Source: Candidatus Nomurabacteria bacterium
GTDB taxonomy: Bacteria > Patescibacteriota > Minisyncoccia > Phycocordibacterales > UBA918
Direction: 5' to 3'
Assembly: GCA_020632075.1 (NCBI GenBank)
Contig: JACKGH010000001.1
Coordinates: forward strand, 195,216-259,215
Length of the DNA: 64,000 nucleotides
Shown here: in pieces, positions 2,430 to 54,183 of the stretch
Layout: each line of letters begins with the position of its first letter
Position numbering within the stretch: the first letter of the stretch is position 1
Notes under the pieces: model-generated
What the model saw: only the letters and a program-made list of their open reading frames with translations
What the model was told of the DNA's origin: nothing
Database searches by the model: none
Translations under genes and position numbers: made by a program

Positions 2430-2431
2430 AT

Positions 2432-3652: not shown

Positions 3653-3690
3653 AGTTATACACAGTTAGCGTAAAATGCTGTGTATAACTG
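3653..3690. repeat. 12-bp perfect inverted repeat hairpin (AGTTATACACAG / CTGTGTATAACT) downstream of the permease gene, without a U-tract
   Basis: Read directly from the sequence. No T-run follows, so its function as a terminator is uncertain. Confidence 0.4.
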
Positions 3691-3753
3691 ACTGATTCAG
3701 TAGACTGTTCTCGGTACAATATACACAAAGGTTTAGTTAGTTATTTAGTATGT

Positions 3754-5649: not shown

Positions 5650-5664
5650 GTGACTCACATTTTG

Positions 5665-5703
5665 CAACAGCCGCTGTTATCCAACAGCGGCTGTTGCTTT
5701 TTG
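5665..5703 (+). terminator. Rho-independent terminator (AACAGCCGCTGTT / AACAGCGGCTGTT stem, then TTGCTTTTTG)
   Basis: GC-rich hairpin with a U-tract 15 nt after the stop codon. Confidence 0.7.
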
Positions 5704-5738
5704 CCCTTTAATTTCTGATAATAGGGAGGTATACATAC

Positions 5739-6692: not shown

Positions 6693-6693
6693 T

Positions 6694-21800: not shown

Positions 21801-22994
21801 GAGTACGACTGGGTAGTGCAGCACAACGGTGCAGCACAACGATCAGACTATTGTTTTAGAGTTGTGAATAGTGATGACAGTGAAATCGCTGGATACATCA
21901 ATTACCCAGTGATTCGCACAACAGGCTACACACCAATTGTAGCGAACTGGCGATGGTACGATGACGAAATCAATGTGACACCGTCTAGTCCACTCGATCA
22001 AGAGAATATTGCACCCACAGATATCGCAAATCAAAACACAATAAAACTGAGAGTCACTGCAGCAGAAGTTGAAAATGCAATTGGTACCAACGTCAAGTTT
22101 GCATTGCAGTACTCAGAGTACGCCGATTTCTCTGACGGCGGAACCTTCCTTACAAGCACAAGTTCCTGCGTTGAGAACTCAATCTGGTGTTACGCAGATG
22201 GAGCAGGTGTTGATGGTGATCTTGTTACAAACGCAACTCTGAGTGATGCTGACAGTTGTGTTGGTGGTGTTGGTAGCGGGTGTGGAACCCATAACGAAGC
22301 TGCAACGACTACTAGTACATTCACTCATGGAGCAAGTGCTAATGCTGAGTTTGAGTTCACGCTCAAAAACGCGGGTGCTCGGGTCAATGCAGTGTACTAC
22401 TTTAGATTATACGATGTTTCATTCGACCAGCCTCTTGTCGCTAGTTCATCATATCCATCACTCGTAGTTGAGGGCCCGACACTTGTCTCCACACTTTCGG
22501 GTGTAGATGCTGGAACCGCAATTGCTGGTATTGTGACAGATGCGACCACCACTGCGACAGCTATTGGTTTCGGGAGTGTGTCTATAGGCACTTCACAAGA
22601 GGCAGCTCAACACCTCACCATCAACACAAACGCTACAGAAGGCTACCAGCTCTTTCTCTTTGTTGATCAACAGCTTGAAAATGCATACGGTGACGAGATC
22701 AAACCTATCACAGGCACAAACGCAGCACCGGTAAGCTGGGCAACTGGATGTGTGGCAACAGCAGTTAGTTGCTTTGGCTACCATACAACTGATGCGGTCC
22801 TAGAAAATGCATCTGCCCGATTCGCACCGATCGATTCATACGCGGCGCTCAGTACCGGTGCGGCAGAAATTATGTACAGTTCTATCCCAAGCGACGACAC
22901 TCATAGTATTGTGTATAGAATGTTTGTTTCTCAATACCAACCAGCTGGTGATTACGAAGCTGCTATTAGTTACTTGGTGACTCCTGTTTTTTAG
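15855..22994 (+). CDS. Giant (2379 aa) secreted surface protein with internal repeat modules and a C-terminal divergent WxL-like domain, CscC-like
   Basis: Signal-anchor. Two ~180-aa A modules (DVEVSASGTQ...HYHWRNDDGDETD and DVDVSASGTQ...HYHWRNDDGTESG). Four ~150-aa B modules (RRLRFEVS...FQLEYATKTAACN...WVDVG...YCFRLSDDG and variants). The C-terminal 190 aa are homologous to the C-terminus of the 8100 protein, ending ISYLVTPVF. Confidence 0.8.
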   Translation: MLQWETLRVYFVNQKSRFGLYRRAASFLLVLLVFFSNVTSPLLQLLPGIIRDHAPIGPSTAFAATGDFATFRESTAGDTISQGGPPVAIKWDTTISSNANLGLQANTSDIDLADGGKYFVTYSAWAYEGTAGGTNRRTVDTYLTLNNVPLAYGRGSGYIRDNEGDTSAYANGGAIISAAAGDDLEAYIKRNDGNATAGTQLQPGVNGISVLKLPESADYLRARIAATSSSISANTSFTDVVWDTADEVDTGSFAFTPSSGNITMKGAAGTNFMITANVGLYVSGGGTTRQNYEMRLTLDGVEVPGSRVTTYLRGSDNTWYGTLAYMGIISKTSASDQTLNIEIRRESTGGATTVIQGDKAGLAIMALPDIAEVVRLTDNSGTQQPALTSKPLYFDTNDEVDASAFGHSTSANQDRVTISAAGDYLFFATAYSTTSNSDNNREPFRIDWNKTGSQQNYGGFGAFNRSNSTFSGGASGAILLNGLGTSDYVHLKYIDETTSAPENGTFNAGRVALQGIALNDNFFGLDVEVSASGTQTSAVDIPTSNTYVGGQFVVTENSGSRNVTNVTITESGTVDGANGLDNIKLYYDLDTSSPYDCASESYGGGESQFGSTDTNGFSGADGSSSFSDSVAITTTKALCLYPVMDIVAAATDGDTIELSIDNPTTDVVVTGGASIGPATTQAISGATTLRSADLTQTHYHWRNDDGDETDTVANATPTVKNTTSSGFGASTAGNDPVLTVPANAVEGDYMVVIFTTDDNNPTQTPTPPSSETWTLQESGLMPVDGTAAVSPPAAWIYTKFVSADDEANAGTKTYTWQDSAGSEEQAAQLILLNNVKGWGEFNTNLLTGNQTSINAPSVTTTETNEIVFHAAFKDNNATFTALPTGSTVVNSGWGPASDAGAALGIVYAVYPTVGATGAKTFSLASNEANGFTFSLQPTNAGGATSIEGAEDTPAIGFANGTVRRLRFEVSAEGSTSSLPTVFQLEYATKTAACNVLSEWVDVGVSDGGDWDVVDSTHVTNGANTTNITSAAYGALTDENSSFLSSNGGVRDTSSQTGSLILSSTQFVELEFAIEPTSGAPQGNTYCFRLSDDGTPLPRYDVYAEGTISADVDVSASGTQATSVSFNSANNYLGGVFVIERPGTNRTVTDITITESGTVDGQEGLDNIELWYDLDTTAPYDCTGESYGGGETQFGSTDTNGFSGSDGTSQFTSAGVNINETTSMCVYVVYDTTASSSNGETIDIKIASPSSDVVVTGSSVGPSTAVSPTGSTTIAGPILTQMHYHWRNDDGTESGATSVSGGVEDTPISAVPKESIRRLRLEVSNEGTVNALATNFRLEYGTKITTCDAVVTWTDVGEVAGAWDMALSSNIADGDTSDIALGANGALTNENTTFDGVGALRESTSESGAITLTTTEFTELEYSIEATVDSGYDTTYCFRVTDSGTELQGYDVYAELTTREKQDFYIQRGVTFVSGTSTTLVAGTDYIAPSAADAAFIRITNTQLTGAGRSAGNATQNADDVTAYIENPDNILNNIVIARPTGASDDTRVAWEIIEYIGIAGGDNEMIVRDHGVVSLGTTDLTATGATVSGVSNDSDIVVFVTGQLNTDTGTNYSTGLYTSEWSSSTDEPVFTRGVSGDTGEVSYAVVEFTGDNWKVQRIEHNYAAGGVTEVESVSAVNSLSRAFVHAQKRTSEHGLDETGHEVWLSSIGYLSFALESGVTSPTNHYSVAWVIENTQSSNGAMSVQRSNGVLARNTPCGGVEPCTEVVSITAVNESNASPWVTNRSSGSGTLFPRPIVGVRLVNSGTEIEYWRSDTGQPQTYRTEIVTWPVAETAVRQNYYRFYVDNDSLTPTDAWPVGAEDLGENTTLTAADDPLGEGERVRIRMSLRISNATLPELTKTFKLQYGLQETTCSAISAWTDVGTPGSGTIWRGYNGTEVDGTAIATSTPAAGTLLLTPSDVAGTYEEQNDSAVNPYKVDIGEDVEYDWVVQHNGAAQRSDYCFRVVNSDDSEIAGYINYPVIRTTGYTPIVANWRWYDDEINVTPSSPLDQENIAPTDIANQNTIKLRVTAAEVENAIGTNVKFALQYSEYADFSDGGTFLTSTSSCVENSIWCYADGAGVDGDLVTNATLSDADSCVGGVGSGCGTHNEAATTTSTFTHGASANAEFEFTLKNAGARVNAVYYFRLYDVSFDQPLVASSSYPSLVVEGPTLVSTLSGVDAGTAIAGIVTDATTTATAIGFGSVSIGTSQEAAQHLTINTNATEGYQLFLFVDQQLENAYGDEIKPITGTNAAPVSWATGCVATAVSCFGYHTTDAVLENASARFAPIDSYAALSTGAAEIMYSSIPSDDTHSIVYRMFVSQYQPAGDYEAAISYLVTPVF

Positions 22995-32355: not shown

Positions 32356-32544
32356 CTAAGTGCTATACTTTTAATATGACTTGGTACAAAGTATCATTAT
32401 TCGGATGGCTCTTCGCGCTACTGCATGTAGCATTAAGTTCGCTCATTGTGTATGGCCGTGTCACATACGATGTCGGGGAACCAGCGTACTATCTATATCG
32501 CGCTGCGTTTGGTATCCATATCTTTTTACTCTGTCTTTTTGTGT

Positions 32545-33087
32545 ATGCACGCTATAAGAAAGAACGCATTTTTGCAAAAAAATAACAATCGTGGCTACAC
32601 GATCATTGAGCTGCTGATCGTCATCAGTATCATTGCTATTCTTGCGAGCATTATTCTTCCCAAGCTAGGGGAAGCACGAGAATCAGCGCGTCTTGCTAGA
32701 GCGACACAAGAGCTAAGCTCAATTCACAAATCACTAGTGCAGTACCGTTCAAAATATGGTGAGTATCCAGCTGATACCAACCGTAATATCCCCCCTGGTC
32801 TAGAAGAGTTCCTCGGCCCTGGTATCTGGCCCGACGCAGCGTGGCCTGGCAGTGTGTTTGACTGGGACAATTGGGAAGACCCAGATGATCCATCAAAGCG
32901 GATCATGCAGGTCAGTATTCGTTTTTGCCCGATCGGACAACCTGCACAATGTAAGTTCCCAGACGCAGATTGGGCTGCTAGTTTTGATATCAATAGTGCA
33001 GTCTACTACTGTGTGGAAGGCGCTTGTCGTTCGCATCTTTCGAAGCCAATCAACCACCCAGGATACTGCGTAAACTGCCAGAATTAG
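32545..33087 (+). CDS. Type IV pilin-like protein (prepilin leader MHAIRKNAFLQKNNNRG, then YTIIELLIVISIIAILA), Cys-rich C-terminal domain
   Basis: Class III signal: basic leader ending in Gly, then Y-T-I-I-E-L-L-I-V with Glu at +5 and a hydrophobic helix. The start is chosen at the in-frame ATG 17 codons upstream of the cleavage Gly. The ORF-track start 32446 gives an implausible 50-aa leader. Confidence 0.65.
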   Translation: MHAIRKNAFLQKNNNRGYTIIELLIVISIIAILASIILPKLGEARESARLARATQELSSIHKSLVQYRSKYGEYPADTNRNIPPGLEEFLGPGIWPDAAWPGSVFDWDNWEDPDDPSKRIMQVSIRFCPIGQPAQCKFPDADWAASFDINSAVYYCVEGACRSHLSKPINHPGYCVNCQN

Positions 33088-33127: not shown

Positions 33128-35152
33128 GTGAAATTTGAGATCGCAACCGACAAGCAACCAGCCGGAGATCAACCGAAGGCGATCGAGGCGCTGGTACAGG
33201 GGATCAAAGCTGGTAATCGACACCAGACGCTTTTGGGAGTGACTGGCTCCGGTAAGACCTTTACCGCCGCAAACGTGATCCAGCAGATCCAGAAGCCAAC
33301 CCTAGTGATCGCACACAACAAAACACTCGCAGCACAGCTGGCACAAGAGTACAAAGATTTTTTTCCAAACAATGCCGTACACTACTTCGTGTCGTACTAC
33401 GATTACTACCAACCAGAGGCATACATGCCGACCAGTGATACCTATATCGAGAAGGAAGCGCAGATCAACGAAGAGATCGATCGACTTCGTCACGCCAGTA
33501 CTCAAGCTCTTCTGACCCGAGAAGACGTGATCATTGTGGCGTCTGTCTCGTGCATCTACGGCCTGGGCTCTCCGGCAGAATATGAAAAGAAGCATTTGCG
33601 CATTGAACGTGGTTTCGAGACCACTCGCACTGACATGCTCCGAGTCCTGGTAGACATGTACTTCGAGCGCACCAATGCTGACCTCACTCCAGGACATTTT
33701 CGAGCAGTAGGGAACACAGTAGAGATCATGCCGACCAACGAGCGAGTTATTTATCGACTTGGCTTTTCTGGCAACAAGGTATCGAATATTACAAAAATTG
33801 ACGGCGTTTCACGTTCGATCATCGATGAACCTGAGGTATTCTTCCTTTTTCCAGCCAAGCACTTCGTTACTCCAGAGGACGAACGAAAGGTCGCTATGGC
33901 TGACATCAAGCTTGAGCTTGATGAACAACTCAAATATTTCAAGAAGGAAGGGAAGATCCTTGAAGCTGAGCGTCTCAAACGACGAACCGAGCACGATCTC
34001 GCGCTGATTCGAGAGGTTGGGTACTGTAATGGTATCGAAAACTACTCGCGCCACTTCGACCGTCGTAAGGCCGGCGAAGCGCCATACACACTCCTTTCAT
34101 ACTTCCCACACAAGGAAGACGGTACGCCAGATTTCTTAACCATTATCGACGAATCACACGTGACGATTCCACAACTCAATGGTATGTACGCCGGCGACCA
34201 GTCACGCAAGAAGACATTGGTTGAATTTGGTTTCCGTCTCCCGAGCGCGGTCGACAACCGACCGCTCAAGTTCGCGGAGTTCGAAGAACGTGTCGGGCAA
34301 CAAATCTACACTACCGCAACACCTGGCAAGTTTGAGCTGGCAGCACTTGAAAAAGAGGGTCTGAAGCCAATTGAGCAGATCATCCGCCCGACCGGACTGG
34401 TAGACCCCGAGATCGATGTGCGCGGGATCGTCGAGGAAGGTGAGTATCCAGGCCAAGTGAAGGACTTCATTGATGAGTCGGTAAAAGTGATCGGCAGGGG
34501 AGCGCGCGTGCTCGTAACCACACTCACGAAGCAAATGGCTGAAGACTTGGCAGAGTTTCTTGAAGAAAAGAACATCAAGACCAAGTATATTCATAGTGAT
34601 GTGGAGACCATCGAACGGATTGAGATCTTGACCGACTTTCGAAAAGGGACCTTTGACTGCTTGGTCGGTGTGAACCTCCTGCGCGAGGGGCTCGACCTAC
34701 CTGAAGTAGAGCTGGTTGCGATTCTCGATGCTGACAAAGCTGGGTTTCTCCGCAGCGAAACAGCCCTCATTCAGACCATTGGTCGTGCTGCTCGAAATGT
34801 AAACGGTCGGGTGATCCTCTACGCGGACGAGATAACTGATTCACTTGAATATGCGATCAGTGAGACAACACGTCGTCGTGAAATGCAGCTGACATACAAC
34901 AAGGAACACGGGATCACACCAAAGACTATCGCTAAAGAGATCAAGTCGATTGCTGATCAACTCCGCACTGATCACGACGAGACGGTAGACACATTACTCA
35001 AGGTAGACATGGAGCTCTTTAGGAAAAACCCTAAGAAAGTCCTGAAAGAAAAGCGCCGACAGATGGAGGAAGCCGTAGCCATTTTAGACTTTGAAACAGC
35101 TGCCATCATTCGTGATGAGATCAAATACCTGGAAGAGCAGAATGCCAAGTAG
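33128..35152 (+). CDS. uvrB: Excinuclease ABC subunit B
   Basis: Helicase motifs GVTGSGKT and DESH, a beta-hairpin region, and a C-terminal UVR coiled coil. GTG start per the ORF track. Confidence 0.95.
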   Translation: MKFEIATDKQPAGDQPKAIEALVQGIKAGNRHQTLLGVTGSGKTFTAANVIQQIQKPTLVIAHNKTLAAQLAQEYKDFFPNNAVHYFVSYYDYYQPEAYMPTSDTYIEKEAQINEEIDRLRHASTQALLTREDVIIVASVSCIYGLGSPAEYEKKHLRIERGFETTRTDMLRVLVDMYFERTNADLTPGHFRAVGNTVEIMPTNERVIYRLGFSGNKVSNITKIDGVSRSIIDEPEVFFLFPAKHFVTPEDERKVAMADIKLELDEQLKYFKKEGKILEAERLKRRTEHDLALIREVGYCNGIENYSRHFDRRKAGEAPYTLLSYFPHKEDGTPDFLTIIDESHVTIPQLNGMYAGDQSRKKTLVEFGFRLPSAVDNRPLKFAEFEERVGQQIYTTATPGKFELAALEKEGLKPIEQIIRPTGLVDPEIDVRGIVEEGEYPGQVKDFIDESVKVIGRGARVLVTTLTKQMAEDLAEFLEEKNIKTKYIHSDVETIERIEILTDFRKGTFDCLVGVNLLREGLDLPEVELVAILDADKAGFLRSETALIQTIGRAARNVNGRVILYADEITDSLEYAISETTRRREMQLTYNKEHGITPKTIAKEIKSIADQLRTDHDETVDTLLKVDMELFRKNPKKVLKEKRRQMEEAVAILDFETAAIIRDEIKYLEEQNAK

Positions 35153-35203: not shown

Positions 35204-36013
35204 ATGTCAGTACTCAGTAACAAGCGCGTCCTTGTTGTGGACAGCGAAAGTGCGCAGTTAAGCGAAGTTGCTTCAATGCTCACTTCAGAAGGAGTGGAGG
35301 TGGAATCACTTCCTTGCAGCGAGGTTACCCCGGAGAAGGTTGCCGAGCTGGACATTGATCTGGTCCTACTAAATCACCTCCATGAAGGAGTCGCCTGCAA
35401 CGACACTTTGGCTCTCCTCCGGAGCGTTGGTGTCACGGCTGTTATGCCGATCCTTGTGCAAGTTGATGATACGACAGAATCTATTCAAACCGCTCTCTCA
35501 AGCGGCGCAGCAGACTACACCACTCCAGACGAACCAGCAGCTTCAGTTATTCAGAAAATGCGTGCTATTTTTGACCAAGGAGACACCTTTGCTGGCAGTT
35601 CCGATATTGATATCACCCCAACTGAAACGACTGTTACAAAAACCGGTATCAGGGTGTATGTGGTTGAAGACGACCCACTACTACGAAATCTTCTCTCTGT
35701 GCGGATGGAGAAATCATCGTTCCCGTATGAATTCAGTGTGGATGGCTCTGGCGCGCTTGAGGCAATGCACCAATTTAAGCCTGACATCATCATTCTTGAC
35801 CTTATGCTCCCAGGCAAAAGCGGATTCGAAGTCCTGCAGGAAGTCAAGGCTGACGAAATGCTTAAAGACGTGCCTGTGATCGTCTTTTCAAACAAGGATG
35901 GTCAGGAAGATCGTGCTCGAGCTAAACAACTCGGAGCTGCTGGTTTCTACGTGAAAGCCATGACCGATCTCTCAGAACTCATTGATAAAATAGCTGCACA
36001 TGCAAAGGCATAA
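35204..36013 (+). CDS. Dual receiver-domain response regulator without output domain (N-terminal degenerate REC, C-terminal canonical REC)
   Basis: C-terminal REC has VEDDP...DLMLPG...K. N-terminal REC-like fold has the phospho-acceptor region replaced (DLVLLNH). Confidence 0.7.
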   Translation: MSVLSNKRVLVVDSESAQLSEVASMLTSEGVEVESLPCSEVTPEKVAELDIDLVLLNHLHEGVACNDTLALLRSVGVTAVMPILVQVDDTTESIQTALSSGAADYTTPDEPAASVIQKMRAIFDQGDTFAGSSDIDITPTETTVTKTGIRVYVVEDDPLLRNLLSVRMEKSSFPYEFSVDGSGALEAMHQFKPDIIILDLMLPGKSGFEVLQEVKADEMLKDVPVIVFSNKDGQEDRARAKQLGAAGFYVKAMTDLSELIDKIAAHAKA

Positions 36014-36027
36014 AAATACATATACCC

Positions 36028-38571
36028 ATGCCGTCACCAAAGCAGACAAAAACAGTAAAAAAAACTACTCAAGCTGTAAAGAAAACAGCTAAAAAGTCTG
36101 CTCGCAAGTCAGTGCGAAAAGCAGCTCCAAAGAAAGCGGTTGCTAAAAAAACTGCTGTCAAAAAGGTTGCGTCAAAAAAGAAGAGTGTCCCGCAGCCTAA
36201 GCCTGAAGCAACTGCTAGCGATGCGGTCACATTACCATCAGCTGTGCCTCCAGCAGTGCTTTCAAAAAGCAACAGTATTAGAGAATTCGATCGGGACTTT
36301 CGACATGCTATGTATCTCATAGCTTATGTGAGCTCATTTTGTTTTATGCTTGTTGGCTCAACTATGCTTGCTTCTGGCGTTTTATCAACACACAACCTAG
36401 CACTTAAAGCAGAGACGATCAGCATCAGCACCACAACAGACGGAACGCTCAGTGAACCAACAAATCTTATACCACCACCGCACTTCGACCTCATGTCGCC
36501 GGTGCCAACCGCTGTCGACGAGCCATTCACCATAAAATTCTTGTTGCGTAGCACAGAAAATGTACGAGCATATTTAGTTTCTGCTCCTTTGGATTTCAGA
36601 CATGAACTACCACTCAATGGAGTTACCACAGACACCTATAGCGTACTCATCCCATACGTAGAGCTTGAAAGAGGCTTTTACCGTGTTGTCGTGACCGGTA
36701 AGGCTCTCATTGATAATGAACTAGTCACTTTCGACACTCCAGTATTTGAAGTCGTGATTCCTGAGCCGACACCAGTTGAAGAAGTTGACAATTCTGGCAC
36801 AGGCAATGCTGCAGACGGCACAAGCTCCACTGATGTTTCCACCGACGGCACGGACGCTGACGCTGTTGTACCAGACGTGACTGGCGCGACAGACACTACA
36901 CTCGATGACACTCCGACCACTGATGCTGTTGATACTGTGCAAACCACAGATGACAACGCAACTGGATTGGTAGTAGTTGAAGATGAAGAACCAGCAGACG
37001 AACCAGAACCAGCAAAGCTTGACCTCAGAAAGAATTTCAGTGAGCCAGCTTCAGGCTTTGTGACATTAACTATTGACGCGCCTCTCGATCTCCGTTCCGT
37101 TGAGATATATGCTCGCAACCTCAAGTCAACTGAACGAACATTTGTTTCACTAGCATTCAAATCTACCAGTGGCTGGAAAGTGGTTTTTAATACAAAGAAC
37201 TTTGCTAATGGTGAGTACGAGCTACACGCTGTCACACAAGCTGATGGAGTAAAGATCCTCTCGAACCCCGTTAAGGTAAAAATATACAACGCGCCAACGA
37301 CCGTAACCAACACAGTAACTGAACCAGTGCTTGATGCTGCACTCAAAACAAACGGCACAGAACCAACTTCTGAACCATTTCCTGTTTCTGTCACTGAACC
37401 AAAACTAATCGAAGAACCAAAGGTTCGTGAGTTTATTACTGTTGAAACAGAATCTGAGGACTCAGCGAAAAAAGCAGAGAAACTTTCGACAGAAACATTA
37501 CAACCTCGCACAACAACAAACCCACTAACGCAGGTCGAACGTGACGCGGACACACTCCTGCGAACAAACTCTACCGACCTCAATACATTACTGAAGAACT
37601 ATGCTTCAGCTAAGCAATCAGGTGACCAGATCTTGATCGACGCGGCAAAGAAAGCATTGGCAGAAAAGCGTGAATCACTAATCCAAAACACCGTAGCGTC
37701 TGAGGAGGGAGCTTCTCTTGTGTCGGAACTGAGTGTAAAAGTAACAGAGCGCATCGAAGACCTCCAAAACCGTATCGATACCTTCGAACAACTTAGAAAG
37801 GATCGTTCAGCGGGAGAAACTGCCACTGACAGCGATGGTGATGGTATATCAGATATCGACGAACGTACGCTATACGGCACTGACCCAAATACTAACGACA
37901 GCGATGGTGATGGTATTGCTGACGGTATTGAGATCATGCGTGGATACAACCCAAAGGATGCATCTGCCGAAGCGATCATCGAATTTGAGTCACCAAAAGA
38001 AACGATTGGCGTCGAACGTGAAGAAGAGCTCATCGTGAAGGAAGTTGCGCCTGTTGTAGCAGTGGAAAACAACAACACTGACCGACGGGTACAAACTGAG
38101 ATTCGAGGACAAGCTTTACCAAACAGCATCGTCACTCTATACATCTTTAGCGCTCCGACTGTGGTCACGGTGCGTACTGATGCAGACGGAGCGTTTGTCT
38201 ACACCTTTGACAAGGAGCTTGAGGACGGTGAGCATGATGTGTACGTAGCGGTTACAGACAACGCCGGTGCCATCGTGGCGCAAAGTAAGCCATTTAGGTT
38301 TGTGAAGGAAGCTCAAGCGTTCACACCAGTAGACGCAGCTGAAGCTGGTGTCGTAACCGTTGATTCTGTTACGACCCCAAGCACAAAGCCGTACAATGCC
38401 GTAGTTGGTATGGGCATTCTAGCCTTTGGTATTATCCTACTCATGCTCGGCATCAGCCTTCGAACCAAAGACGAGACAGATACCCCCGACTCATCAGACA
38501 CTAACGATAGTGAGCCTGTCGTCACCGAAGCTCCCGTACTGATTGCACGCAAAGCTGATCAGCCAGCATGA
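36028..38571 (+). CDS. Two-TM envelope protein with histone-H1-like Lys/Ala-rich N-terminus, T/D-rich ectodomain, coiled coil, TSP3-like Ca-binding Asp repeats, Ig-like domain, and C-terminal TM with acidic tail
   Basis: KKTTQAVKKTAKKSARKSVRKAAPKKAVAKKTAVKKVASKKKS, then a TM, then DSDGDGISDIDERTLYGTDPNTNDSDGDGIADGIEI (thrombospondin type-3-like), then the TM AVVGMGILAFGIILLMLGISL. Confidence 0.6.
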   Translation: MPSPKQTKTVKKTTQAVKKTAKKSARKSVRKAAPKKAVAKKTAVKKVASKKKSVPQPKPEATASDAVTLPSAVPPAVLSKSNSIREFDRDFRHAMYLIAYVSSFCFMLVGSTMLASGVLSTHNLALKAETISISTTTDGTLSEPTNLIPPPHFDLMSPVPTAVDEPFTIKFLLRSTENVRAYLVSAPLDFRHELPLNGVTTDTYSVLIPYVELERGFYRVVVTGKALIDNELVTFDTPVFEVVIPEPTPVEEVDNSGTGNAADGTSSTDVSTDGTDADAVVPDVTGATDTTLDDTPTTDAVDTVQTTDDNATGLVVVEDEEPADEPEPAKLDLRKNFSEPASGFVTLTIDAPLDLRSVEIYARNLKSTERTFVSLAFKSTSGWKVVFNTKNFANGEYELHAVTQADGVKILSNPVKVKIYNAPTTVTNTVTEPVLDAALKTNGTEPTSEPFPVSVTEPKLIEEPKVREFITVETESEDSAKKAEKLSTETLQPRTTTNPLTQVERDADTLLRTNSTDLNTLLKNYASAKQSGDQILIDAAKKALAEKRESLIQNTVASEEGASLVSELSVKVTERIEDLQNRIDTFEQLRKDRSAGETATDSDGDGISDIDERTLYGTDPNTNDSDGDGIADGIEIMRGYNPKDASAEAIIEFESPKETIGVEREEELIVKEVAPVVAVENNNTDRRVQTEIRGQALPNSIVTLYIFSAPTVVTVRTDADGAFVYTFDKELEDGEHDVYVAVTDNAGAIVAQSKPFRFVKEAQAFTPVDAAEAGVVTVDSVTTPSTKPYNAVVGMGILAFGIILLMLGISLRTKDETDTPDSSDTNDSEPVVTEAPVLIARKADQPA

Positions 38572-39908
38572 TCTCAGAAACACTCACTGTCCTTGAACGA
38601 GGACTGAAGATCATGAAGTCAAACTCACGAATGGTGCTCGTTGCCATTTTAGTATTCGTGTTTCCACTGATCTTCGTATGGGTGACACAAAATTTCTTCG
38701 CAACAGCATACGACAACATCGACACCGCTGAAAAGAAGCGAGTTGCGATGCTGCACGACACTATTGCTGCAGTCTTGCAGACACCAGGATACCAGGATGA
38801 GCTTTTAAGCAATCTCATCAATTACTACGGTGCAGAAAATCCAGATATTACTAAGGTTAGAATCCTTAAAGTCACTGAGAGTGGTTTACTTATCACACAC
38901 GCACTACGTGAAGACCTGATCAATAGTTACGATGAGTCCACCGCTACATTTGAAACGCTTCCGGGTGCAGTTAAAAGTGGCCCCGTTATTGTGCCACTGC
39001 AAATTGACGGTGTTCGTGTCTGGCAAGTCTTCAGGCAAGTGCAGACCGATACAGTCGATTACTATGTCTTTTCAGAACATAGCTTCAGCATGATCGATGC
39101 GGTAATGGCTGCTCGACGACAAGAATCCTACTATGGACTTACCGCAATATTCTTATTTTTGATCGCGCTCGCATATTGGATCAACCGCCAAACGCACTGG
39201 AGCGTTGAACACAGCAAACTACAGACTCAACTACGAGACCGAGACCTCTTCTCCAACATGATCGCACATGAGTTCCGCGCACCGCTCACTGCCATTAAGG
39301 GCTATGCGAGTTTCTTGCAAGAATCTGAGTCAATTGAGGCAACAGACAAACGCTATGTGAGTAACATTCGAACTTCAGCTGAACGATTAGTAGCACTCGT
39401 TAATGACTTCCTTGAAGTGGCTCGTCTGCAATCTGGAAAAATGGATCTACAAATGGAGACGATCGACGTCAGAAAGGTAGTGATCGCAGTGGCAGAAGAC
39501 TTGAAGCCAACAGCTACAGAAAAGGGATTATCTCTAACGTACAAGCCAGGAACTAAGCCACTCCCAGTCTCTACGGACAAGAATCGACTCACTCAAGTTC
39601 TGATCAACATCGTAAATAACGCTATCAAGTACACAAATGAAGGATCAGTTGAATTAAGCGTCCAAGAAGAAAGAGAGCGAGTGATCATACGTGTCATGGA
39701 CACCGGTATGGGCATCAGTGCAGAAGACCAGAAAAAGCTGTTTGCTCCATTCGAACGAGTCGGAAATGTCGAACAAACTGCCACAACGGGAACTGGTCTT
39801 GGTATGTACATTACAAAAAAGCTTATTGAGCTTTTGGGTGGCACTATCGGTGTCGAGTCTATCAAGGGAGTCGGTTCACATATCGTACTGTCCTTGCCGC
39901 TAGAGTAA
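38568..39908 (+). CDS. Sensor histidine kinase (2 TM, periplasmic sensor, HisKA + HATPase_c)
   Basis: H-box [17 protein letters not shown]-box [11 protein letters not shown]-boxes DTGMGIS and [10 protein letters not shown]. Overlaps the upstream gene by 4 nt. Confidence 0.85.
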
Positions 39909-39971: not shown

Positions 39972-42629
39972 ATGTATATGCCTACACCAAAGAAAAAACC
40001 ACAGACTAAGACCAAATGGGAGGAAGGAAACAGCGTCGATGGCGGGAAGATCATTGTACGTGGCGCGCGCACCCACAACCTCAAGAACATTGATGTCGAG
40101 ATGCCACGTGGCAAAATGATCGCTATCACCGGCCCCTCTGGTTCCGGTAAGTCATCGCTTGCATTTGATACTATTTTTGCCGAAGGACAGCGCCGGTATG
40201 TCGAGTCACTTTCGCCGTATGCACGACAGTTTCTTAACAAAATGCAGAAGCCTGATGTTGATGAGATCTCTGGTCTCTCACCAGCTATTTCAATCGACCA
40301 AAAATCTGCCTCACGCAACCCACGATCAACTGTCGCAACTATCACTGAGATCTACGACTATCTTCGTATCGTCTATGCGCGCATTGGACAACCATACTGT
40401 ATCGACGTCGATGTACCGATCCAAAAGCTCTCACAAGACGAGATCCTCGGCATTGTACTTAAGTCTATCGAAGACAGGGAAGTGAAGGCAGCAACCAAGA
40501 AGCAGTCAGAAAAAGTCCTCGGTATCGAGGTTTCAAAAGGCCGTGTCTCGATCTTTGCGCCGGTGGTGGTTGGTCGAAAGGGTGAATACTACCAGATGCT
40601 CTACGATCTGCTCGGCAAGGGATATGAAACAGTGAAAATCGATGGGGAAGTGAAGCAGCTCCGCGAGAAGATCGTACTCACCAAAACCAAACGACACGAC
40701 ATCGATGTCCTGATCGACGAGATCTATGTCAGTGAATTCACCGACGATCCAAAAGGCTCACGAGAGCGCCTCTCAGAGGCCGTAGAATTGGCTCTGATGG
40801 AAGCAAATGGCATGGTCAAGATCGAAAGTCCAGACGGCTCAGAACGCACACTTTCAGCCAAGTTCACCTGTCCGGTAGACGGATCATCCTTCCCAGAAGT
40901 AGAGCCACGTCTCTTTTCATTCAACTCACCATACGGAGCATGTCCCGAATGTAACGGTCTCGGGGTGGTTGGCATTTTCCAGTCAGACGAATGTCCGGTG
41001 TGTAACGGTGCCCGTCTCCGTAAGGAAGCACTTCGCGTGTACCTTGGTGGCGATGACAAGAAAGATCTCGGAGTGAACATCGTAGACTTCACCAAACTTA
41101 CAGTAAGTGAAGCAGCGAACTTCGTTGCAAATCTCAAGCTCAGCAAGAAGCAAGAGGAAATTGCCTGGCCAGCACTACGTGAGGTGATCGAGCGACTGGA
41201 CTTCATGAAGGATGTAGGTATCGAGTACCTCACGCTTGATCGCCGCGCGAATACACTTTCAGGTGGCGAAGCACAGCGTATCCGACTCGCCTCGCAGCTT
41301 GGTTCTGGGCTTGTAGGCGCACTCTACGTACTCGACGAACCATCGATTGGACTTCACCAGCGTGATAACGACAAGCTGATCAAAACGCTTCAGGAACTAC
41401 GCGATCTCGGCAATACCATCGTGGTAGTAGAACACGATGAGGACACGATCTATGCTTCAGATTATCTGGTGGATATCGGCCCGGGTGCTGGTGTGCACGG
41501 CGGTAGTGTGATCGTCGCTGATCATCTCGATAAGCTGCTGAGTGCAAAAACGAATCAATCAAAGTCGATCACGCTCGACTACCTTCGCGGTGATAAAAAG
41601 ATCGAAGTTCCTGAACGGCGTACGAGTGAAAAGGGAAAGATTCAGATCAAAGGCGGAAAAGCCTTCAACATTAAGAACATGAATGTCGACGTGCCACTCG
41701 GTCGTTTTGTGTGTATCACTGGGGTGTCGGGTTCTGGAAAGTCGACTTTCATGTACGAAATTCTTGACCGCAATCTCAAGGCTCGGCTCGAGAAGCGCTA
41801 CCGCACCGCCAAGACCTTCAACTGCTCATCGATCACTGGCACTGAGTACCTTGGTCGTTCGATCTTGATCGACCAATCTCCAATCGGTCGCACGCCACGC
41901 TCAAACCCAGCTACGTACACTGGGGCTTTTACACATATCCGTGATCTCTTTGCTGCCACCAGTGAAGCTCGAGCGCGCGGTTGGAAACCGGGACGTTTTA
42001 GCTTCAACGTAAAAGGAGGACGTTGTGAAGCCTGTCAGGGCAATGGAGTAATTGCAGTTGAAATGCACTTCTTGCCAACCGTGTATGTAACTTGTGATGT
42101 CTGTGATGGTACGCGCTTCACCAAGGAAACCCTCGAGGTGTACTACAAGGGTAAAAATATTCACGACGTGCTCCACATGACCATTGAGGATGCGCATGAG
42201 TTCTATATTGACGTGCCTGCGATTCAGGAGCGTTTGAAATCACTACTCGATGTTGGCCTTGGGTACTTAGAGCTTGGTCAAAGTGCTACAACACTCTCGG
42301 GCGGGGAAGCGCAACGCGTAAAAATCGCCTCTGAGCTTTATCGGCCACATACGCAAAAAAGTATCTACTTACTCGACGAACCAACTGTGGGTCTGCACTA
42401 CGAGGACGTCAAAAAGCTTATCGAGATTCTCCAACAGCTGGTAAACCACGGCAATACCGTGGTAGTGATCGAACACAACCTCGACTTTATTAAGAGCGCT
42501 GACTACATCATTGATATCGGTCCTGAAGGCGGTGCTGGCGGCGGTCAAATCGTCGCAAAAGGCACACCAGAAGAAGTGGCTGAAAACGAGAAGTCACACA
42601 CAGGACGATACTTAAAGAAGATATTGTAA
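39972..42629 (+). CDS. uvrA: Excinuclease ABC subunit A
   Basis: Two ABC modules ([22 protein letters not shown]), zinc-finger Cys clusters, two LSGGEAQR signatures. Confidence 0.95.
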
Positions 42630-42630
42630 A

Positions 42631-42663
42631 AAGAAAAAAGCGGCCACAGTTGTGGCCGCTTTG
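42631..42663. terminator. Bidirectional rho-independent terminator (GCGGCCAC / GTGGCCGC flanked by an A-run and a T-run) between convergent uvrA and a minus-strand gene
   Basis: AAGAAAAAAGCGGCCACAGTTGTGGCCGCTTTG. Confidence 0.75.
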
Positions 42664-49371: not shown

Positions 49372-52300
49372 TTAACCTCGAACCTCACCCGGTCGATTGA
49401 GATACGTGATCGGAATCAGCACGAGAGTAATGATCACTGAGAACACAAGTCCGAACATTACAGCGTAGGCAAGCGGTGACCAAATGTCGCCAGCGTATGT
49501 AAGCGGAACCATACCAATGACCGTCGTAACAGTCGTGAGTAAGATCGGGCGCAAACGACTGGTCGCAGCATCAAGCACCACCTCTTCCAAGTCCTTGCTT
49601 GGATCTTCTCGGCGAATATTGTTCATCATGTCGATCAGCAAGATCGAGTTGTTTACCACGATACCAGAGAGCGCAATGAAGCCCATGAGAGAAGGGAAGG
49701 AGAGAGTATTGCCGGTGATCGCAAGACCAAACATGATCCCAATGAGCGAGTACGGCAAGATCGAAAGCACGTAACGCATATGGAGGTACGAGTTGAACTG
49801 GAGCACCAAGACTCCAACCATAAGCATTACACCCACAATAAGCGCCAGGAACATTTCCATGAATGCCTTGTTTGATTCTTCTGTCTCGCCACCGCCGCTA
49901 CTAAGAGTTACCGCATCTGGAATATCAAGCTGTGACCTGATCTCTTCAAGCGCGGTCGCTTGCGCTTCGCGTGCGTTACCACCTTCAGCAATGTCGGCAG
50001 TGACACTCACCACTCGCTTACCATCTTCATGAGAAATGACTGAGCTTGATTCACGAAGTGAAACCGACACCAAGCTCGAAAGCGGAATTGGTCCACTTTG
50101 ACTTGGGATCGTGATGTCTCGAAGCGCATCGATCGTGGTTACGTTCACTGAGTCTGTTCGAGCACTTGGATCATTGTTTACATTGAGCTTCACGACCACA
50201 TTAATATCTTCATCAAGTGTCGTGAGTGATGTCGCTTCAGTACCATAGAGTGCAGTTCGCGCTACCTGTGAGACCAAGAATGGACTCACGCCAGACGCAG
50301 CCGCCTTATCACGATCGAGCTCAAGCACAAACTCAGTACTGTTGTTATTGGTGCTTGTCTCAACATTCACCACACCAGGCTGTGTACGCATGATCTCAGC
50401 TGATTCATTCGCAAGCTGCATGATCTCACTGAGGTCATCACCGAGGAATTTCACCACAATCGCCGCACCAGTTGGCGGACCATCACTTGGCTGACTCACA
50501 TTCACCTTAATATCGTTCAAGACAGCCATCTTTTCGCGAAGATCCGAAACGATCTCGCTACTGGTTCGCTCACGATCGAGATCAAGATTAGCAAAGATGT
50601 TAGCAAACTTTTCACCCGTACCTCCATTTCCGAACTGACTTCCACTTCCGACGGTCACCGTGAACGAATCGATCTCATCCTCAGCATAGAGGATCTCCTC
50701 AACTCGACGAATTGAGATATCGGTCACCTCCTTGGTCGTTCCTTCTGGCTCTTCTACTTCCACAATAATGTAGTCAACGTCACTTTGATCAAAGAAGATC
50801 ACTCGCACCAGACTCGCCTGCGGCAAGATAGCGTTTGACACCACCACAGCAAGAACGATCGAGAGCGCTACCTGCGGCAGCCACATAAGCTTTCGCTTCC
50901 AGTTACTGATCGGGCGTGCAAGTTGCTTGTCCTTCGAACGTTTAGTAACCACATACACAAGCGGTCCAGCGATGAAGCCAGCAAACACATTGATCGGCAA
51001 AAAGATCGAGAAGACCAACAAGGCAAAGATAAGTGAGAGAAAATGATTCTGACGCGCCTTGCTATCAAGATAGTACTTGAGCTTCTCGTGATACCACGCT
51101 TCAAGCTTCTTGGCGTACGCAAGCTGCTTCACCTCAAATTCACTCGTGCTTCGTCGATGCAAAAAGGTTGAAGCAAGCAGTGGCACGATCGCAAGAGCGA
51201 CAAAGAGTGACGCGAACAGCAAGAAGACAAGCGTAAACGGAATACTTGCAATGAATTGCCCGGTCACACCAGACACAATGAAGAGCCCTACGAACATCGA
51301 TACGGTCGTTAGAGTTCCTGAGATAAGCGGCGCACGGAAGTCACGGATAGCACTGATCGCTGCCTCATTCTTATCGATAGTTGGATTATCCTTCATGCGG
51401 CGGTTGATACCTTCTACCATCACGATAGCGGAGTCCACCAAGATACCGATACCAAGAATGAGCGAGAAGAGACTCAAGAAGTTGATCGTATTGCCTGAGA
51501 AGTAGAGACCAATGAATCCAAAGAGGAATGACAGCGGAATGGCTGTCCCAGCCAAAAGTCCTTCCCGCCAACCGATCGCCGCCATGAGAAGCAGAACCAC
51601 CAGGATCACTGTCTGCAAGCCAGACATTGTGAGACGGAGCAAGTCTTTATTGATCATGTCACCTGAGTCGAGCACGACTACAGTTGTGACATCGGCTAAG
51701 AGTTCACCTGGCGCTTTGAGTTCCTCCATACGCTCATTTACGGCCTTCGTAATAGTAGTGATGTCACCACCAACTTGCTTGTACACATTGAAAGTGATCG
51801 AACTTTCAGAAGGTGCTCCAGCTACACTAAGACGAGACAAGGAAGACGCTGGAGCCAAACCATCTTCTACCACCGCAATGTCGCGCACATACACCGGCTG
51901 ACCACCACGACTCGTCACCGGCACATTCTGAATATCACTCGTATCGACAATATCGCCTTCAAACGCAACGTTGTATGACACGCCATTGTTTACGATCTGA
52001 CCGATCGGGAAGGTAAGATTCGCTGAGCGAAGCGCATTGGTAACATCAGTCAAACCGAGGTCATAGCGCACCAATGCTTCTTGATTTACGATCACGGTCA
52101 CTTCGCGCTTTCGGACACCACTCACATCCACTTTCTGCACACCCGTCACTGCTTCGATCTCACGCTCAACATCATCTGCGAGCGAGGTCAGTTCAAAATC
52201 AGGCAAGTCAGCCGAGACTGATAGTGTCAAGATCGGCTGATCCACAAAGTTCACTTCAGATACATATGGATCTTCGGCATCGTCTGGAAGATCTGGCTTG

Positions 52301-52638
52301 ATCGTGTCCACTTCATCTTTCAGGTCGAGAATCGACGCATCAAGATCAGCGTCCTCATCAAACTCCACTACGATCGTCGAGACTGATTCTCGCGACGTCG
52401 AGGTGATCTTCTTCACATTTTCAAGACCACGCAGTCCACGCTCGATCTCGTTGGTCACGAGCGATTCAACGTCAGCCGCTGGAGCACCCGGCAGTACCGT
52501 ACTTACGATACCAACCGGAATCACCACCTCAGGTGCGGATTCGCGTGAAATGGTCGTAATGCTGAACACACCAACACCAATGAGCGCCACCAAAAATAGG
52601 TACGCAAATCGGTTGTTTTTAATAAAGAATTCCCACAT
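49372..52638 (-). CDS. RND-family efflux transporter permease (AcrB/HAE-type, 12 TM, two large periplasmic loops)
   Basis: N-terminal MWEFFIKNNRFAYLFLVALIGVGVFSITTISRESAPEV, 1088 aa, canonical RND topology. Confidence 0.9.
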   Translation of the reverse strand: MWEFFIKNNRFAYLFLVALIGVGVFSITTISRESAPEVVIPVGIVSTVLPGAPAADVESLVTNEIERGLRGLENVKKITSTSRESVSTIVVEFDEDADLDASILDLKDEVDTIKPDLPDDAEDPYVSEVNFVDQPILTLSVSADLPDFELTSLADDVEREIEAVTGVQKVDVSGVRKREVTVIVNQEALVRYDLGLTDVTNALRSANLTFPIGQIVNNGVSYNVAFEGDIVDTSDIQNVPVTSRGGQPVYVRDIAVVEDGLAPASSLSRLSVAGAPSESSITFNVYKQVGGDITTITKAVNERMEELKAPGELLADVTTVVVLDSGDMINKDLLRLTMSGLQTVILVVLLLMAAIGWREGLLAGTAIPLSFLFGFIGLYFSGNTINFLSLFSLILGIGILVDSAIVMVEGINRRMKDNPTIDKNEAAISAIRDFRAPLISGTLTTVSMFVGLFIVSGVTGQFIASIPFTLVFLLFASLFVALAIVPLLASTFLHRRSTSEFEVKQLAYAKKLEAWYHEKLKYYLDSKARQNHFLSLIFALLVFSIFLPINVFAGFIAGPLVYVVTKRSKDKQLARPISNWKRKLMWLPQVALSIVLAVVVSNAILPQASLVRVIFFDQSDVDYIIVEVEEPEGTTKEVTDISIRRVEEILYAEDEIDSFTVTVGSGSQFGNGGTGEKFANIFANLDLDRERTSSEIVSDLREKMAVLNDIKVNVSQPSDGPPTGAAIVVKFLGDDLSEIMQLANESAEIMRTQPGVVNVETSTNNNSTEFVLELDRDKAAASGVSPFLVSQVARTALYGTEATSLTTLDEDINVVVKLNVNNDPSARTDSVNVTTIDALRDITIPSQSGPIPLSSLVSVSLRESSSVISHEDGKRVVSVTADIAEGGNAREAQATALEEIRSQLDIPDAVTLSSGGGETEESNKAFMEMFLALIVGVMLMVGVLVLQFNSYLHMRYVLSILPYSLIGIMFGLAITGNTLSFPSLMGFIALSGIVVNNSILLIDMMNNIRREDPSKDLEEVVLDAATSRLRPILLTTVTTVIGMVPLTYAGDIWSPLAYAVMFGLVFSVIITLVLIPITYLNRPGEVRG

Positions 52639-52641
52639 AGG

Positions 52642-54183
52642 CTATTCGGTTACCGAAACAGATTCACCAGCAATCAGTCCACGAGCATCAATCACAAACG
52701 AGTCAGTAGCACTGAGGCCTTCAACGATCTCAACCGAGCCGCCGAGAATATCTCCGAGCACGACTGCGTGCTGTTCTAGCTTTCCATCAGTCACACTGAA
52801 GACAAAGCCGTTCTCTCGCTCAAACTTCACTGCAGTAAGTGGCACTCGAACAGTGGTTTGTTTTGATTCGCCATTGAATTCCTTTGTCACCCGAACCGTG
52901 TCACCGTTTGAAATATCAGCACCTTCTGTCGCAATGCGCACTTCTGTCTTCCGCGTAGCACTATTTACTGCTGGCGCGATCTCAGAAATACGGCCTTCGT
53001 AGAGACCTTCCACTGTCACTACATCGCCAACTTGCAAAAGGTCACGTTCGATATCGCTCACATAGGTAACGATCTCAAGCGCACCGTTATTAGCAACCAC
53101 CGCCACCTCATCAAACCCGCCGATGAAATCACCCGGGCGGACCGAGAGGGAATTGACGGTTCCGCTGACTGGTGTACGAAGAATGGTCTTCGCTAGATTT
53201 GCTTGCGCTGCCCGAAGCGCACCAAGCGCTTGCTTGACCTGTGCATCAGCAGCTGAGGTCTCGCCCCCACTTGCAGCCAGTTCGGCGCGTCGTACTGCAT
53301 CAGCAGCACTCGCAAGACCAGCTTCTACGCCATCAATACTCGACTGTACAGCGATCAGATTTGAGCGCAGATTAGTAAAACTAGCAGTGAAAGACTGTAA
53401 TTCGCTGTCAGAGTACCGCGAGCTGTTGTCCTGAGTAGCGAAGACAGTTAGAAACGTATCGATCAAATTAATTGTTCGTTGTACAGATTCTTTAGCATAC
53501 GCAAGTTCTGTATTGAGATCAGAATCAGTTGAAATGGTATTGGCTTTCGTTTGCCAAGTCGCAAGCAAGGTCTGGTATGCGACACGCTCATTGTTGAGCT
53601 GACTGGTGAAACCTCGACCATCAATACGAAGGCCGGGCACACGAGCATCTGGGTCAGCGAAGAAAGTATCGATAGAATTTCGGACGATGCCATTGGTGGT
53701 GTTGTATGCCGACTTGAACGTTGAGACAGCGTTGCTTTTTGCATTCTTGAGTGCTGTCGCTGCTTCGTCGACACCAACATTTGTCTGAGCTGCTGCAGCA
53801 ACTGCTGCATCGTATACACCTTCTGCCTGTAACACAGAAGCGCGCTCAGACGCATTCTCAAGTGTCACCAAAATCGTTCCAGCTGCTACCTGCTGTCCAA
53901 GTGCAACTGGTACACTCGTAACCCGACCTGCACGTTCTGCAGTTACCTTCGCTTCAGTAAACGCACGAACAGTACCAATGACCGATAAAGTCTGACCACC
54001 AGCATACTCTGTAGCAGTAGTGAGACTTACCACTGGTAACTGAGGTTCTTGATCACTGGCTACTTCTGCGTTTCGGCTTTGCAAAACAAGACCAAAAACA
54101 ACAATAACCAGCACTACTAAAGCGCCCCGAACTGATTTGCGACCAAGCCACGGCCGAAGCTTCTGTGTGATATTCATAAACAT
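52642..54183 (-). CDS. Efflux RND periplasmic adaptor (membrane fusion protein, HlyD-like) with extended coiled-coil hairpin
   Basis: N-terminal TM, lipoyl-like half-domain (SVIGTVRAFTEAKVTAERAGRVTSVPVALGQQVAAGTILVTLE), long alpha-helical hairpin, beta-barrel C-terminus. Sits immediately upstream of and co-oriented with the RND gene. Confidence 0.8.
   Translation of the reverse strand: MFMNITQKLRPWLGRKSVRGALVVLVIVVFGLVLQSRNAEVASDQEPQLPVVSLTTATEYAGGQTLSVIGTVRAFTEAKVTAERAGRVTSVPVALGQQVAAGTILVTLENASERASVLQAEGVYDAAVAAAAQTNVGVDEAATALKNAKSNAVSTFKSAYNTTNGIVRNSIDTFFADPDARVPGLRIDGRGFTSQLNNERVAYQTLLATWQTKANTISTDSDLNTELAYAKESVQRTINLIDTFLTVFATQDNSSRYSDSELQSFTASFTNLRSNLIAVQSSIDGVEAGLASAADAVRRAELAASGGETSAADAQVKQALGALRAAQANLAKTILRTPVSGTVNSLSVRPGDFIGGFDEVAVVANNGALEIVTYVSDIERDLLQVGDVVTVEGLYEGRISEIAPAVNSATRKTEVRIATEGADISNGDTVRVTKEFNGESKQTTVRVPLTAVKFERENGFVFSVTDGKLEQHAVVLGDILGGSVEIVEGLSATDSFVIDARGLIAGESVSVTE

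Follow-up and report, generated by a model that had tools for sequence, protein, structure and literature searches.

The gene at 36028-38571 on the + strand of the window, i.e. the 64,000-nucleotide stretch of Candidatus Nomurabacteria DNA analysed here, encodes a predicted bitopic envelope protein of 847 amino acids. The open reading frame (ORF), proposed with a strongly basic start in an earlier note made from the sequence alone, was confirmed as genuine. Its product consists, in this order, of a Lys-rich N-tail, a first transmembrane segment (TM1), an acidic ectodomain, a second transmembrane segment (TM2) and a C-tail. Homology searches showed that it belongs to a large, unannotated family without a Pfam or NCBIfam model, which is found almost only in Patescibacteria. 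The stop of the gene overlaps the start of a sensor histidine kinase gene (38568) by 4 nucleotides (ATGA), as had been described before, and an orthologous kinase adjoins the family gene in 26 of 29 further loci across divergent Patescibacteria, in agreement with the signalling module suggested in the earlier note.

An identical protein is deposited at NCBI as 'hypothetical protein, partial' (687 amino acids) from a Candidatus Kaiserbacteria metagenome-assembled genome. It is annotated as partial because its contig, JAGQMK010000006.1 (GCA_020428695.1), stops inside the gene at residue 687 (window position 38087/38088). The window sequence extends past this contig end and is collinear with the homologs through that point.

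Domain architecture of the protein

The structure was predicted by AlphaFold with a 78-sequence alignment, which gave a usable model with a mean predicted local distance difference test score (pLDDT) of 73.8 and domain cores above 90; the model obtained with a 3-sequence alignment (pLDDT 46) was too poor for use. The gene, its parts and the adjoining kinase are all on the + strand; the basis of each assignment is given in brackets.

36028..38571 (+), whole gene of the bitopic envelope protein (ORF)
36028..36222 (+), predicted cytoplasmic, disordered polycationic tail, residues 1-65 (composition; pLDDT <50)
36226..36267 (+), predicted cytoplasmic juxtamembrane motif V-x-L-P-x-N-M-S-x-R-x-x-E-K, residues 67-80 (conservation)
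36307..36390 (+), TM1, residues 94-121, motif IAYVSxxCFxLVG (hydropathy; AlphaFold helix 75-121)
36475..36762 (+), immunoglobulin (Ig)-like beta-sandwich 1, residues 150-245 (AlphaFold strands, pLDDT 82-96)
36772..36999 (+), acidic, D/T-rich disordered linker, residues 249-324 (composition; pLDDT <50; not conserved)
37015..37287 (+), Ig-like beta-sandwich 2, residues 330-420 (AlphaFold, pLDDT >90)
Residues 425-461, linker (AlphaFold model)
37441..37806 (+), helical region, residues 472-593, conserved motif LLxRYAxAxQSGD (AlphaFold, pLDDT ~90)
37828..37947 (+), two TSP3-type putative Ca-binding loops, residues 601-640 (Pfam TSP3_bac, PF18884)
38032..38328 (+), Ig-like domain 3 (Big_13), residues 669-767, ending PFxFVKEAQA (Pfam; AlphaFold)
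38386..38463 (+), TM2, residues 787-812, motif GxGILALGxILLMLG then Arg (hydropathy; AlphaFold helix 787-810)
38464..38568 (+), predicted cytoplasmic C-tail, residues 813-847, acidic in the window protein (net charge -6)
38568..39908 (+), sensor histidine kinase of 446 amino acids with a transmembrane helix, an outside loop of ~140 amino acids, a second transmembrane helix, HisKA and HATPase_c (Pfam)

The hydropathy analysis located the two hydrophobic segments at residues ~94-119 and ~787-812, and the ectodomain of ~670 residues between them carries a net charge of -61. Foldseek returned only tandem Ig-like matches for beta-sandwich 1. The D/T-rich character of the stretch that follows, which had been pointed out before, was confirmed by composition for residues 260-320. 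Beta-sandwich 2 showed a weak SpaA/prealbumin-like Pfam match (E 0.025), and its residues W383, P393, G395 and Y397 are conserved. The next part had been described as a coiled coil: its helical nature was confirmed, and the model resolves it into four or five helices (472-488, 499-513, 515-531, 534-556 and 562-593). Residue A528 in this region is invariant, and the region is kept in distant kinase-linked relatives, whose tblastn matches start at residues 495-601.

The TSP3-like repeats of the pattern DxDxDGxxDxxE, DSDGDGISDIDE and DSDGDGIADGIE, were recognised as reported, with the TSP3_bac model matching in two stretches at 33.3 bits against a cut-off of 25 (E 4.4e-8). Nine Ca-ligand positions (D601, D603, D605, E612, D624, D626, D628, D632 and E635) are invariant in 147 aligned sequences, as are several Big_13 residues, and as far as these Asp and Glu positions indicate, the two loops may bind Ca2+. 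The Big_13 domain (PF19077) was matched at residues 682-753 with 35.3 bits against a cut-off of 27 (E 1.7e-8). Residues 669-767 are all-beta in the model with pLDDT ~90, and the domain lies ~25-35 residues above TM2. An Ig-like domain had thus been noticed correctly, and the model contains three such beta-sandwiches rather than one. A second protein with such a domain is encoded in the window at 10563-12323 (+): a Big_13 domain is followed by a transmembrane segment, the identity to the 36028 product is 25% over 119 amino acids (Big_13 plus transmembrane segment), and no kinase is nearby. A Big_13 domain just above a membrane anchor may be a recurring module of Parcubacteria surface proteins.

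The best-conserved part of the family is the TSP3-Big_13-'PFxFVKEAQA' block (0.7-0.83 identity to the consensus), with Ig-like domain 3 at the top (0.77-0.83) and the FVKxAxA motif retained even in distant relatives. Conservation is lowest in the linkers and the C-tail. The latter varies from 9 to 72 amino acids in length and from -13 to +5 in net charge, indicating that the acidic C-tail described earlier holds for the window protein and is not a family feature. Searches of Pfam, NCBIfam and PDB sequences returned nothing accounting for the rest of the protein beyond the TSP3 and Ig-like matches: NCBIfam gave TSP3-level matches only, the family profile had no match at E<0.1 among PDB sequences, and the PDB proteins retrieved by Foldseek were all generic Ig-like tandems (the adhesin SiiE, which binds Ca, as well as titin, PorU and Fab antibody fragments).

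Family distribution and pairing with a histidine kinase

A word-indexed homolog search found only two true relatives, a misleadingly small number. An exhaustive search with a profile built from these two retrieved 1923 proteins with E<=1e-30. Of the cluster representatives, the best ~150 have ~750-1000 amino acids and match with E<1e-125 along the full length or across the conserved C-terminal half, except for three giant TSP3-repeat proteins. Loci judged convincing in species-representative genomes numbered 27 (L003-L029), all from Patescibacteria (Kaiser-, Nomura-, Lloyd- and Moranii-bacteria, Minisyncoccales and 'Parcubacteria') save one bin labelled Acidimicrobiales, which is probably a mis-binned contig. 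Matches outside Patescibacteria cover the TSP3 repeat alone. A literature search on this protein family in Patescibacteria found nothing specific.

The kinase of the window matches HisKA (6e-17) and HATPase_c (3e-27). Among the 29 loci, besides the window, the kinase gene lies directly downstream of the family gene in 24, with a gap of at most 11 nucleotides or a 4-nucleotide overlap, and directly upstream in two (L026 and L028); L027 is too short for its adjacency to be judged. These kinases have 445-460 amino acids and the same plan of a transmembrane helix, a ~140-residue loop, a second transmembrane helix, HisKA and HATPase_c. The helical region, the two TSP3 loops, Big_13 and a C-terminal transmembrane segment are common to all kinase-linked relatives.

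The genes flanking the pair in the window are as follows.

33128..35152 (+), uvrB, upstream flank (translation; also upstream in L001, L002, L004-L010 and L029)
35204..36013 (+), pseudo-receiver plus receiver protein of 269 amino acids, isoelectric point 4.4, without an output domain (Pfam Response_reg, two stretches)
39972..42629 (+), uvrA, downstream flank (clade-specific synteny)

Only loci of the closer clade, the one with the tail, have the uvrB...uvrA(-uvrC) frame, and four distant loci (L013, L019, L022 and L025) have the C-terminal subunit of transketolase in the upstream position. Because the pairing persists with different flanking genes, the conserved unit is the protein and its kinase and not the uvrB/uvrA context. 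A link to nucleotide excision repair, considered from the uvrB-module-uvrA-uvrC order, was rejected, as distant members adjoin the transketolase subunit instead; by comparison of the loci, the uvr context is inherited clade synteny rather than a functional link. In L019 (Lloydbacteria), two family-related genes (1297-4482 and 5585-7753) flank the transketolase subunit, and only the second abuts a kinase.

The receiver (REC) gene ends 14 nucleotides upstream of the 36028 gene and is the only REC gene in the window. The two-receiver protein without an output domain had been correctly described, except that its first half is a pseudo-receiver. In an alignment with CheY, REC1 shows Asn in place of D57 and no counterpart of K109, as in L001, L004 and L006, whereas REC2 is canonical (EDD, the Asp of 'IIILDLMLPG', Ser and Lys). 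The kinase with HisKA and HATPase_c and the receiver REC2 with Asp, Ser and Lys thus carry the elements of a two-component system. A REC gene was found upstream in eight loci (L001, L004, L005, L006, L008, L009, L012 and L029), as a single REC and not REC-REC in L008 and L009, and was absent in L002, L007, L010 and all distant loci (none within 7 kb). The gene order REC-REC/protein/kinase, conservation of which was to be checked, therefore held for the protein and the kinase, and REC-REC accompanies them in some loci and not in others. An extra short kinase (~275 amino acids) with REC or REC-REC is present inside uvrB...uvrA in L005 (9940-11444), L009 (9612-11280) and L029 (3798-5493); the first receiver of the L009 and L005 paralogs keeps its Asp.

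No + strand terminator-like site was detected between 32346 and 42637, which weakly supports co-transcription. A perfect GC-rich hairpin with an 11-bp stem and T-runs follows the uvrA stop directly (42637-42662) and probably ends the uvrB-to-uvrA transcription unit as a bidirectional terminator. Directly upstream of uvrB, 32446-33087 (+) encodes a protein with a prepilin N-methylation motif, with no terminator-like site before the uvrB...uvrA stretch. Elsewhere in the window, 15855-22994 (+) is an ORF of 2379 amino acids without a Pfam match at E<=1e-4, and 49372-54183 (-) encodes an AcrB-type RND transporter (1087 amino acids) and a HlyD-like membrane-fusion protein, in a bacterial group usually regarded as lacking an outer membrane.

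The polycationic tail, the transmembrane helices and residue 128

Residues 1-60 of the protein contain 20 Lys and have an isoelectric point of 11.6 and a net charge of +21. A tail of at least 40 amino acids with a net charge of at least +9 precedes the juxtamembrane motif in 130 of the 139 representatives covering the TM1 region; the net charge among close representatives has a median of +20 and a maximum of +36, and most of the nine exceptions have short basic tails or are probable start-site miscalls. The tail sequence itself is not conserved across the family. Its composition is K 26%, T 13%, A 11%, S 10%, V 9% and P 7%, with 5% acidic and 0.4% aromatic residues and a K/(K+R) ratio of 0.84. 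Compositional bias of the genome does not account for the basic stretch, since a count over non-overlapping ORFs of at least 100 amino acids in the window and the 29 related loci found a net charge of at least +13 per 40 amino acids in 15 of 316 ORFs, of which 14 are family members.

For the AKK/KKxA repeat and the resemblance to histone H1 and AlgP that the earlier note had attributed to the tail, the searches gave no repeat unit and no detectable homology: Pfam had no match in residues 1-93 at a threshold as loose as E<=1. The model shows the tail as disordered throughout, and no Linker_histone winged-helix domain, no visible KPAA-type tetrapeptide units of AlgP/PhaF, no match to the Hc1 profile and no Hc2 pentamer repeats were found. 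The likeness to H1 is one of composition in a low-complexity sequence (T+S+V 32% beside the Lys, Ala and Pro). A search for tandem DNA repeats in 35900-38700 found none in the tail and two trivial 2-copy matches elsewhere, so that recent repeat expansion was ruled out as the origin of the tail. Ala/Lys-rich extensions also occur on the Parcubacteria ribosomal protein uS19 (PMC9297842).

The distant relatives (L013-L028) lack the tail and have signal-peptide-like N-termini. Absence of the basic tail from homologs, considered in the earlier note, is thus seen in distant kinase-linked relatives and not in the close clade. Since tail-less relatives can be linked to the kinase, the tail is, judging from the alignments, a clade-specific extension of the signal sequence or anchor which is strongly maintained where present, and an add-on rather than the core of the module. 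The juxtamembrane motif behind it, with P70 invariant and K80 at least 90% conserved in 78 sequences, leads into a confident helix from residue 75 that becomes TM1.

The predicted topology is N-in, ectodomain out and C-in, in keeping with the earlier proposal. A segment of 96 residues with 26 Lys and Arg cannot plausibly be exported, and the conserved Arg after TM2 (the positive-inside rule), the extracytoplasmic types of the TSP3 and Big_13 domains and the signal peptides on tail-less relatives all argue for the same orientation. F106 and G110 in TM1 are at least 90% conserved, and G801 and L804 in TM2 are invariant in the 147-sequence alignment. The two helices probably pack against each other, as the small-residue motifs of both are conserved only in the tail-bearing clade. 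TM2 conservation was also considered as a sign of kinase contact and rejected for the same reason.

Residue 128 (A128; window 36409-36411) is Ala in 68, Gly in 6 and Ser in 4 of 78 tail-bearing homologs and is followed by Q/E and then L/V/I/T. The site lies in a disordered linker, 8-15 residues past the hydrophobic core. It was rejected as a canonical signal peptidase I site, the -3 residue being mostly Q, N or L, and as a rhomboid-type motif, P4 not being hydrophobic.

Interpretation

Accessory membrane proteins encoded together with their kinase are known as a kind: examples are YycH/YycI-WalK, LiaF-LiaS and LpqB-MtrB (see also PMC3262814). The protein shares with them a place in a sensor-kinase operon, a membrane anchor and the bulk of the chain outside the cytoplasm, and by analogy, given the gene pairing, modulation of the kinase through extracytoplasmic or transmembrane contacts would be expected. 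None of the YycH, YycI, LiaF and LpqB families was matched (Pfam E<=1, NCBIfam E<=0.01), and the window protein differs from them in its two membrane anchors, TSP3 loops, Ig-like domains and polycationic tail of ~100 amino acids and in a family restricted to Patescibacteria. The family and its tail are new.

With moderate confidence, we infer that the protein is a dedicated extracytoplasmic partner (co-sensor or scaffold) of the downstream kinase, and that its tail binds polyanions, nucleoid DNA first, and is dispensable for the core function. Both proteins would be made together through translational coupling. The conserved core (helical region, two TSP3 loops and Big_13) would stand outside, with the two further Ig-like domains on disordered acidic linkers, and its membrane-proximal part would contact the ~140-residue outside loop of the kinase and pass a signal to the balance of its autokinase and phosphatase activities. 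What is sensed could be the Ca2+ or divalent-cation status of the envelope, or else a load or a contact experienced by the long ectodomain. The kinase would then phosphorylate the canonical second receiver of the pseudo-REC/REC protein, where present. The Lys-rich tail would be a gain of one large clade, extending a region that other clades have as an ordinary signal peptide. By holding on to polyanions next to the cytoplasmic side of the membrane, in a cell of very small size, it would anchor the sensor complex or bring several together, and the kinase-linked core function would have no need of it.

From its charge and composition, the tail most likely binds polyanions electrostatically. DNA binding is plausible on the same grounds, and the predicted order of targets is nucleoid DNA, then RNA, then anionic lipids, because a near-aromatic-free tail of K/A/P/S/T/V fits H1-like tails better than polybasic-aromatic lipid binders; this ranking is the weakest step. 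A precedent for this layout is Rv3852 of Mycobacterium tuberculosis, in which a cytoplasmic Lys/Ala-rich H1-like segment with KAAK/PAAK repeats is joined to a transmembrane helix and binds DNA while membrane-anchored (PMC8233713). Rv3852 differs in being small, in its C-terminal transmembrane helix, in its true tetrapeptide repeats, in the absence of an ectodomain and of a kinase link, and in that its DNA binding was shown, whereas that of the window protein is predicted from composition. The Lys-rich disordered tails of AlgP and PhaF likewise bind DNA and tether cellular structures to the nucleoid or polyphosphate (PMC9239181). Those tails and the C-terminal domain of histone H1 resemble the present one as disordered, Lys-rich, low-complexity polycations, but they are soluble and have regular KPAA repeats with ~40-50% Ala, whereas the family tail has the Lys, Thr and Ala contents given above and no periodic unit, is N-terminal and membrane-tethered, and has no detectable homology to them.

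Several observations weigh against the partner reading. The L017 gene runs straight into uvrA without a kinase, and L023 has no kinase within 1 kb downstream. The TM2 conservation, limited to the tail-bearing clade, points to TM1-TM2 packing and not to kinase contact. Adjacency alone cannot separate a partner from co-regulated cargo, the Ca2+ may be purely structural, and cleavage at residue 128, if it is a processing site, could separate tail and ectodomain. No homology of the tail points to DNA binding, and any peptide of +20 binds DNA in vitro.

Among the alternatives, the tail may be a topogenic or charge-balancing element or an anionic-lipid binder without a nucleic-acid role, which would impose N-in insertion on TM1, ahead of the very acidic ectodomain, or bring the complex to regions of anionic lipid; this is possible, although on the unlikely side. 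The net charge of -61 of the ectodomain against +21 of the tail is consistent with balancing, and the tail occupies the n-region position of a signal anchor and looks like an expanded form of the short, basic n-regions of the distant relatives. However, about +20 over ~80-100 residues is far above what topology needs, as the distant relatives manage with +2 to +5, and a tail of conserved length, with a juxtamembrane motif separate from it, suggests a specific function. Polybasic segments that bind lipids usually carry aromatic or hydrophobic residues, and the aromatic content of the tail speaks against such a role.

It is rather unlikely that the protein acts on its own at the surface of an episymbiotic cell, for example as a Ca-dependent adhesin or a strut of the envelope, and takes no direct part in sensing, being linked to the two-component system only through shared transcription or regulation. 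Adhesins typically have Ig-like tandems, TSP3 repeats and long acidic linkers, Foldseek ranked SiiE, titin-like Ig tandems and PorU highest, and the Big_13 protein at 10563-12323 has no kinase. TSP3-repeat surface proteins (PF18884) such as CglD and MtsD of Myxococcus have the same extracytoplasmic DxDxDGxxDxxE loops and were matched by NCBIfam, yet at 22 bits against cut-offs of 400-800, i.e. with repeat-level similarity only; the window protein has just two repeats, and the rest of the architecture is unrelated. What disfavours an adhesin is the tight, orientation-conserved coupling to one orthologous kinase across clades with different flanks, together with a membrane-proximal core that stays conserved while the N-terminal Ig-like modules vary or vanish.

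It is doubtful that the primary role is to tether the nucleoid or nucleic acids to the envelope through the histone-H1-like tail, the ectodomain serving as anchor or sensor. The composition of the tail, disordered, rich in K/A/P/S/T, nearly free of aromatic and acidic residues and thus similar to the C-terminal domain of H1, is kept in the 130 of 139 close relatives, and Rv3852 provides the precedent (PMC8233713). Kinase-linked relatives in other Parcubacteria do without the tail, so that tethering cannot be the core role of the family; the lack of H1, Hc1 or AlgP homology and of a repeat unit, and the uvr neighbourhood being clade synteny, count against it as well.

The last alternative, cleavage of TM1 as a signal sequence whose basic n-region is abnormally long, leaving a mature type I protein held by TM2 and a separate or degraded membrane peptide of ~128 amino acids (tail plus TM1), is very unlikely: position 128 is small in 78 of 78 sequences within an otherwise variable, disordered linker and the normal signal peptides of distant relatives end AxA-like, but ~51 of the 78 have Q, N or H at -3, residues disfavoured there for signal peptidase I, the hydrophobic segment of ~25 residues has the length of a membrane anchor, and the clade-co-conserved small-residue motifs in TM1 and TM2 suggest packing.

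We return to the partner reading and one speculative extension of it. No DNA-binding regulator is encoded nearby, only the pseudo-REC/REC protein of pI 4.4, and it is conceivable, though a long shot, that the two-component system of tail-bearing Parcubacteria uses the membrane-tethered polycationic tail itself as output, with phospho-dependent binding of the acidic REC protein or the kinase to the tail or to the juxtamembrane motif competing with nucleoid DNA. If so, nucleoid-membrane attachment would respond directly to envelope Ca2+ or contact signals, and no sequence-specific transcription factor would be involved.

Nothing found here contradicts current understanding. Patescibacteria, the candidate phyla radiation, live as episymbionts with tiny genomes and few regulators, and their signalling is almost wholly uncharacterised. 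With its invariant putative Ca-ligand positions and long ectodomain, the protein-kinase pair, which recurs across Parcubacteria lineages, is a concrete candidate for the sensing of the envelope, divalent cations or host contact in these cells, and the tail-bearing and tail-less clades offer a natural comparison for the role of a membrane-tethered H1-like polycation in a bacterium.

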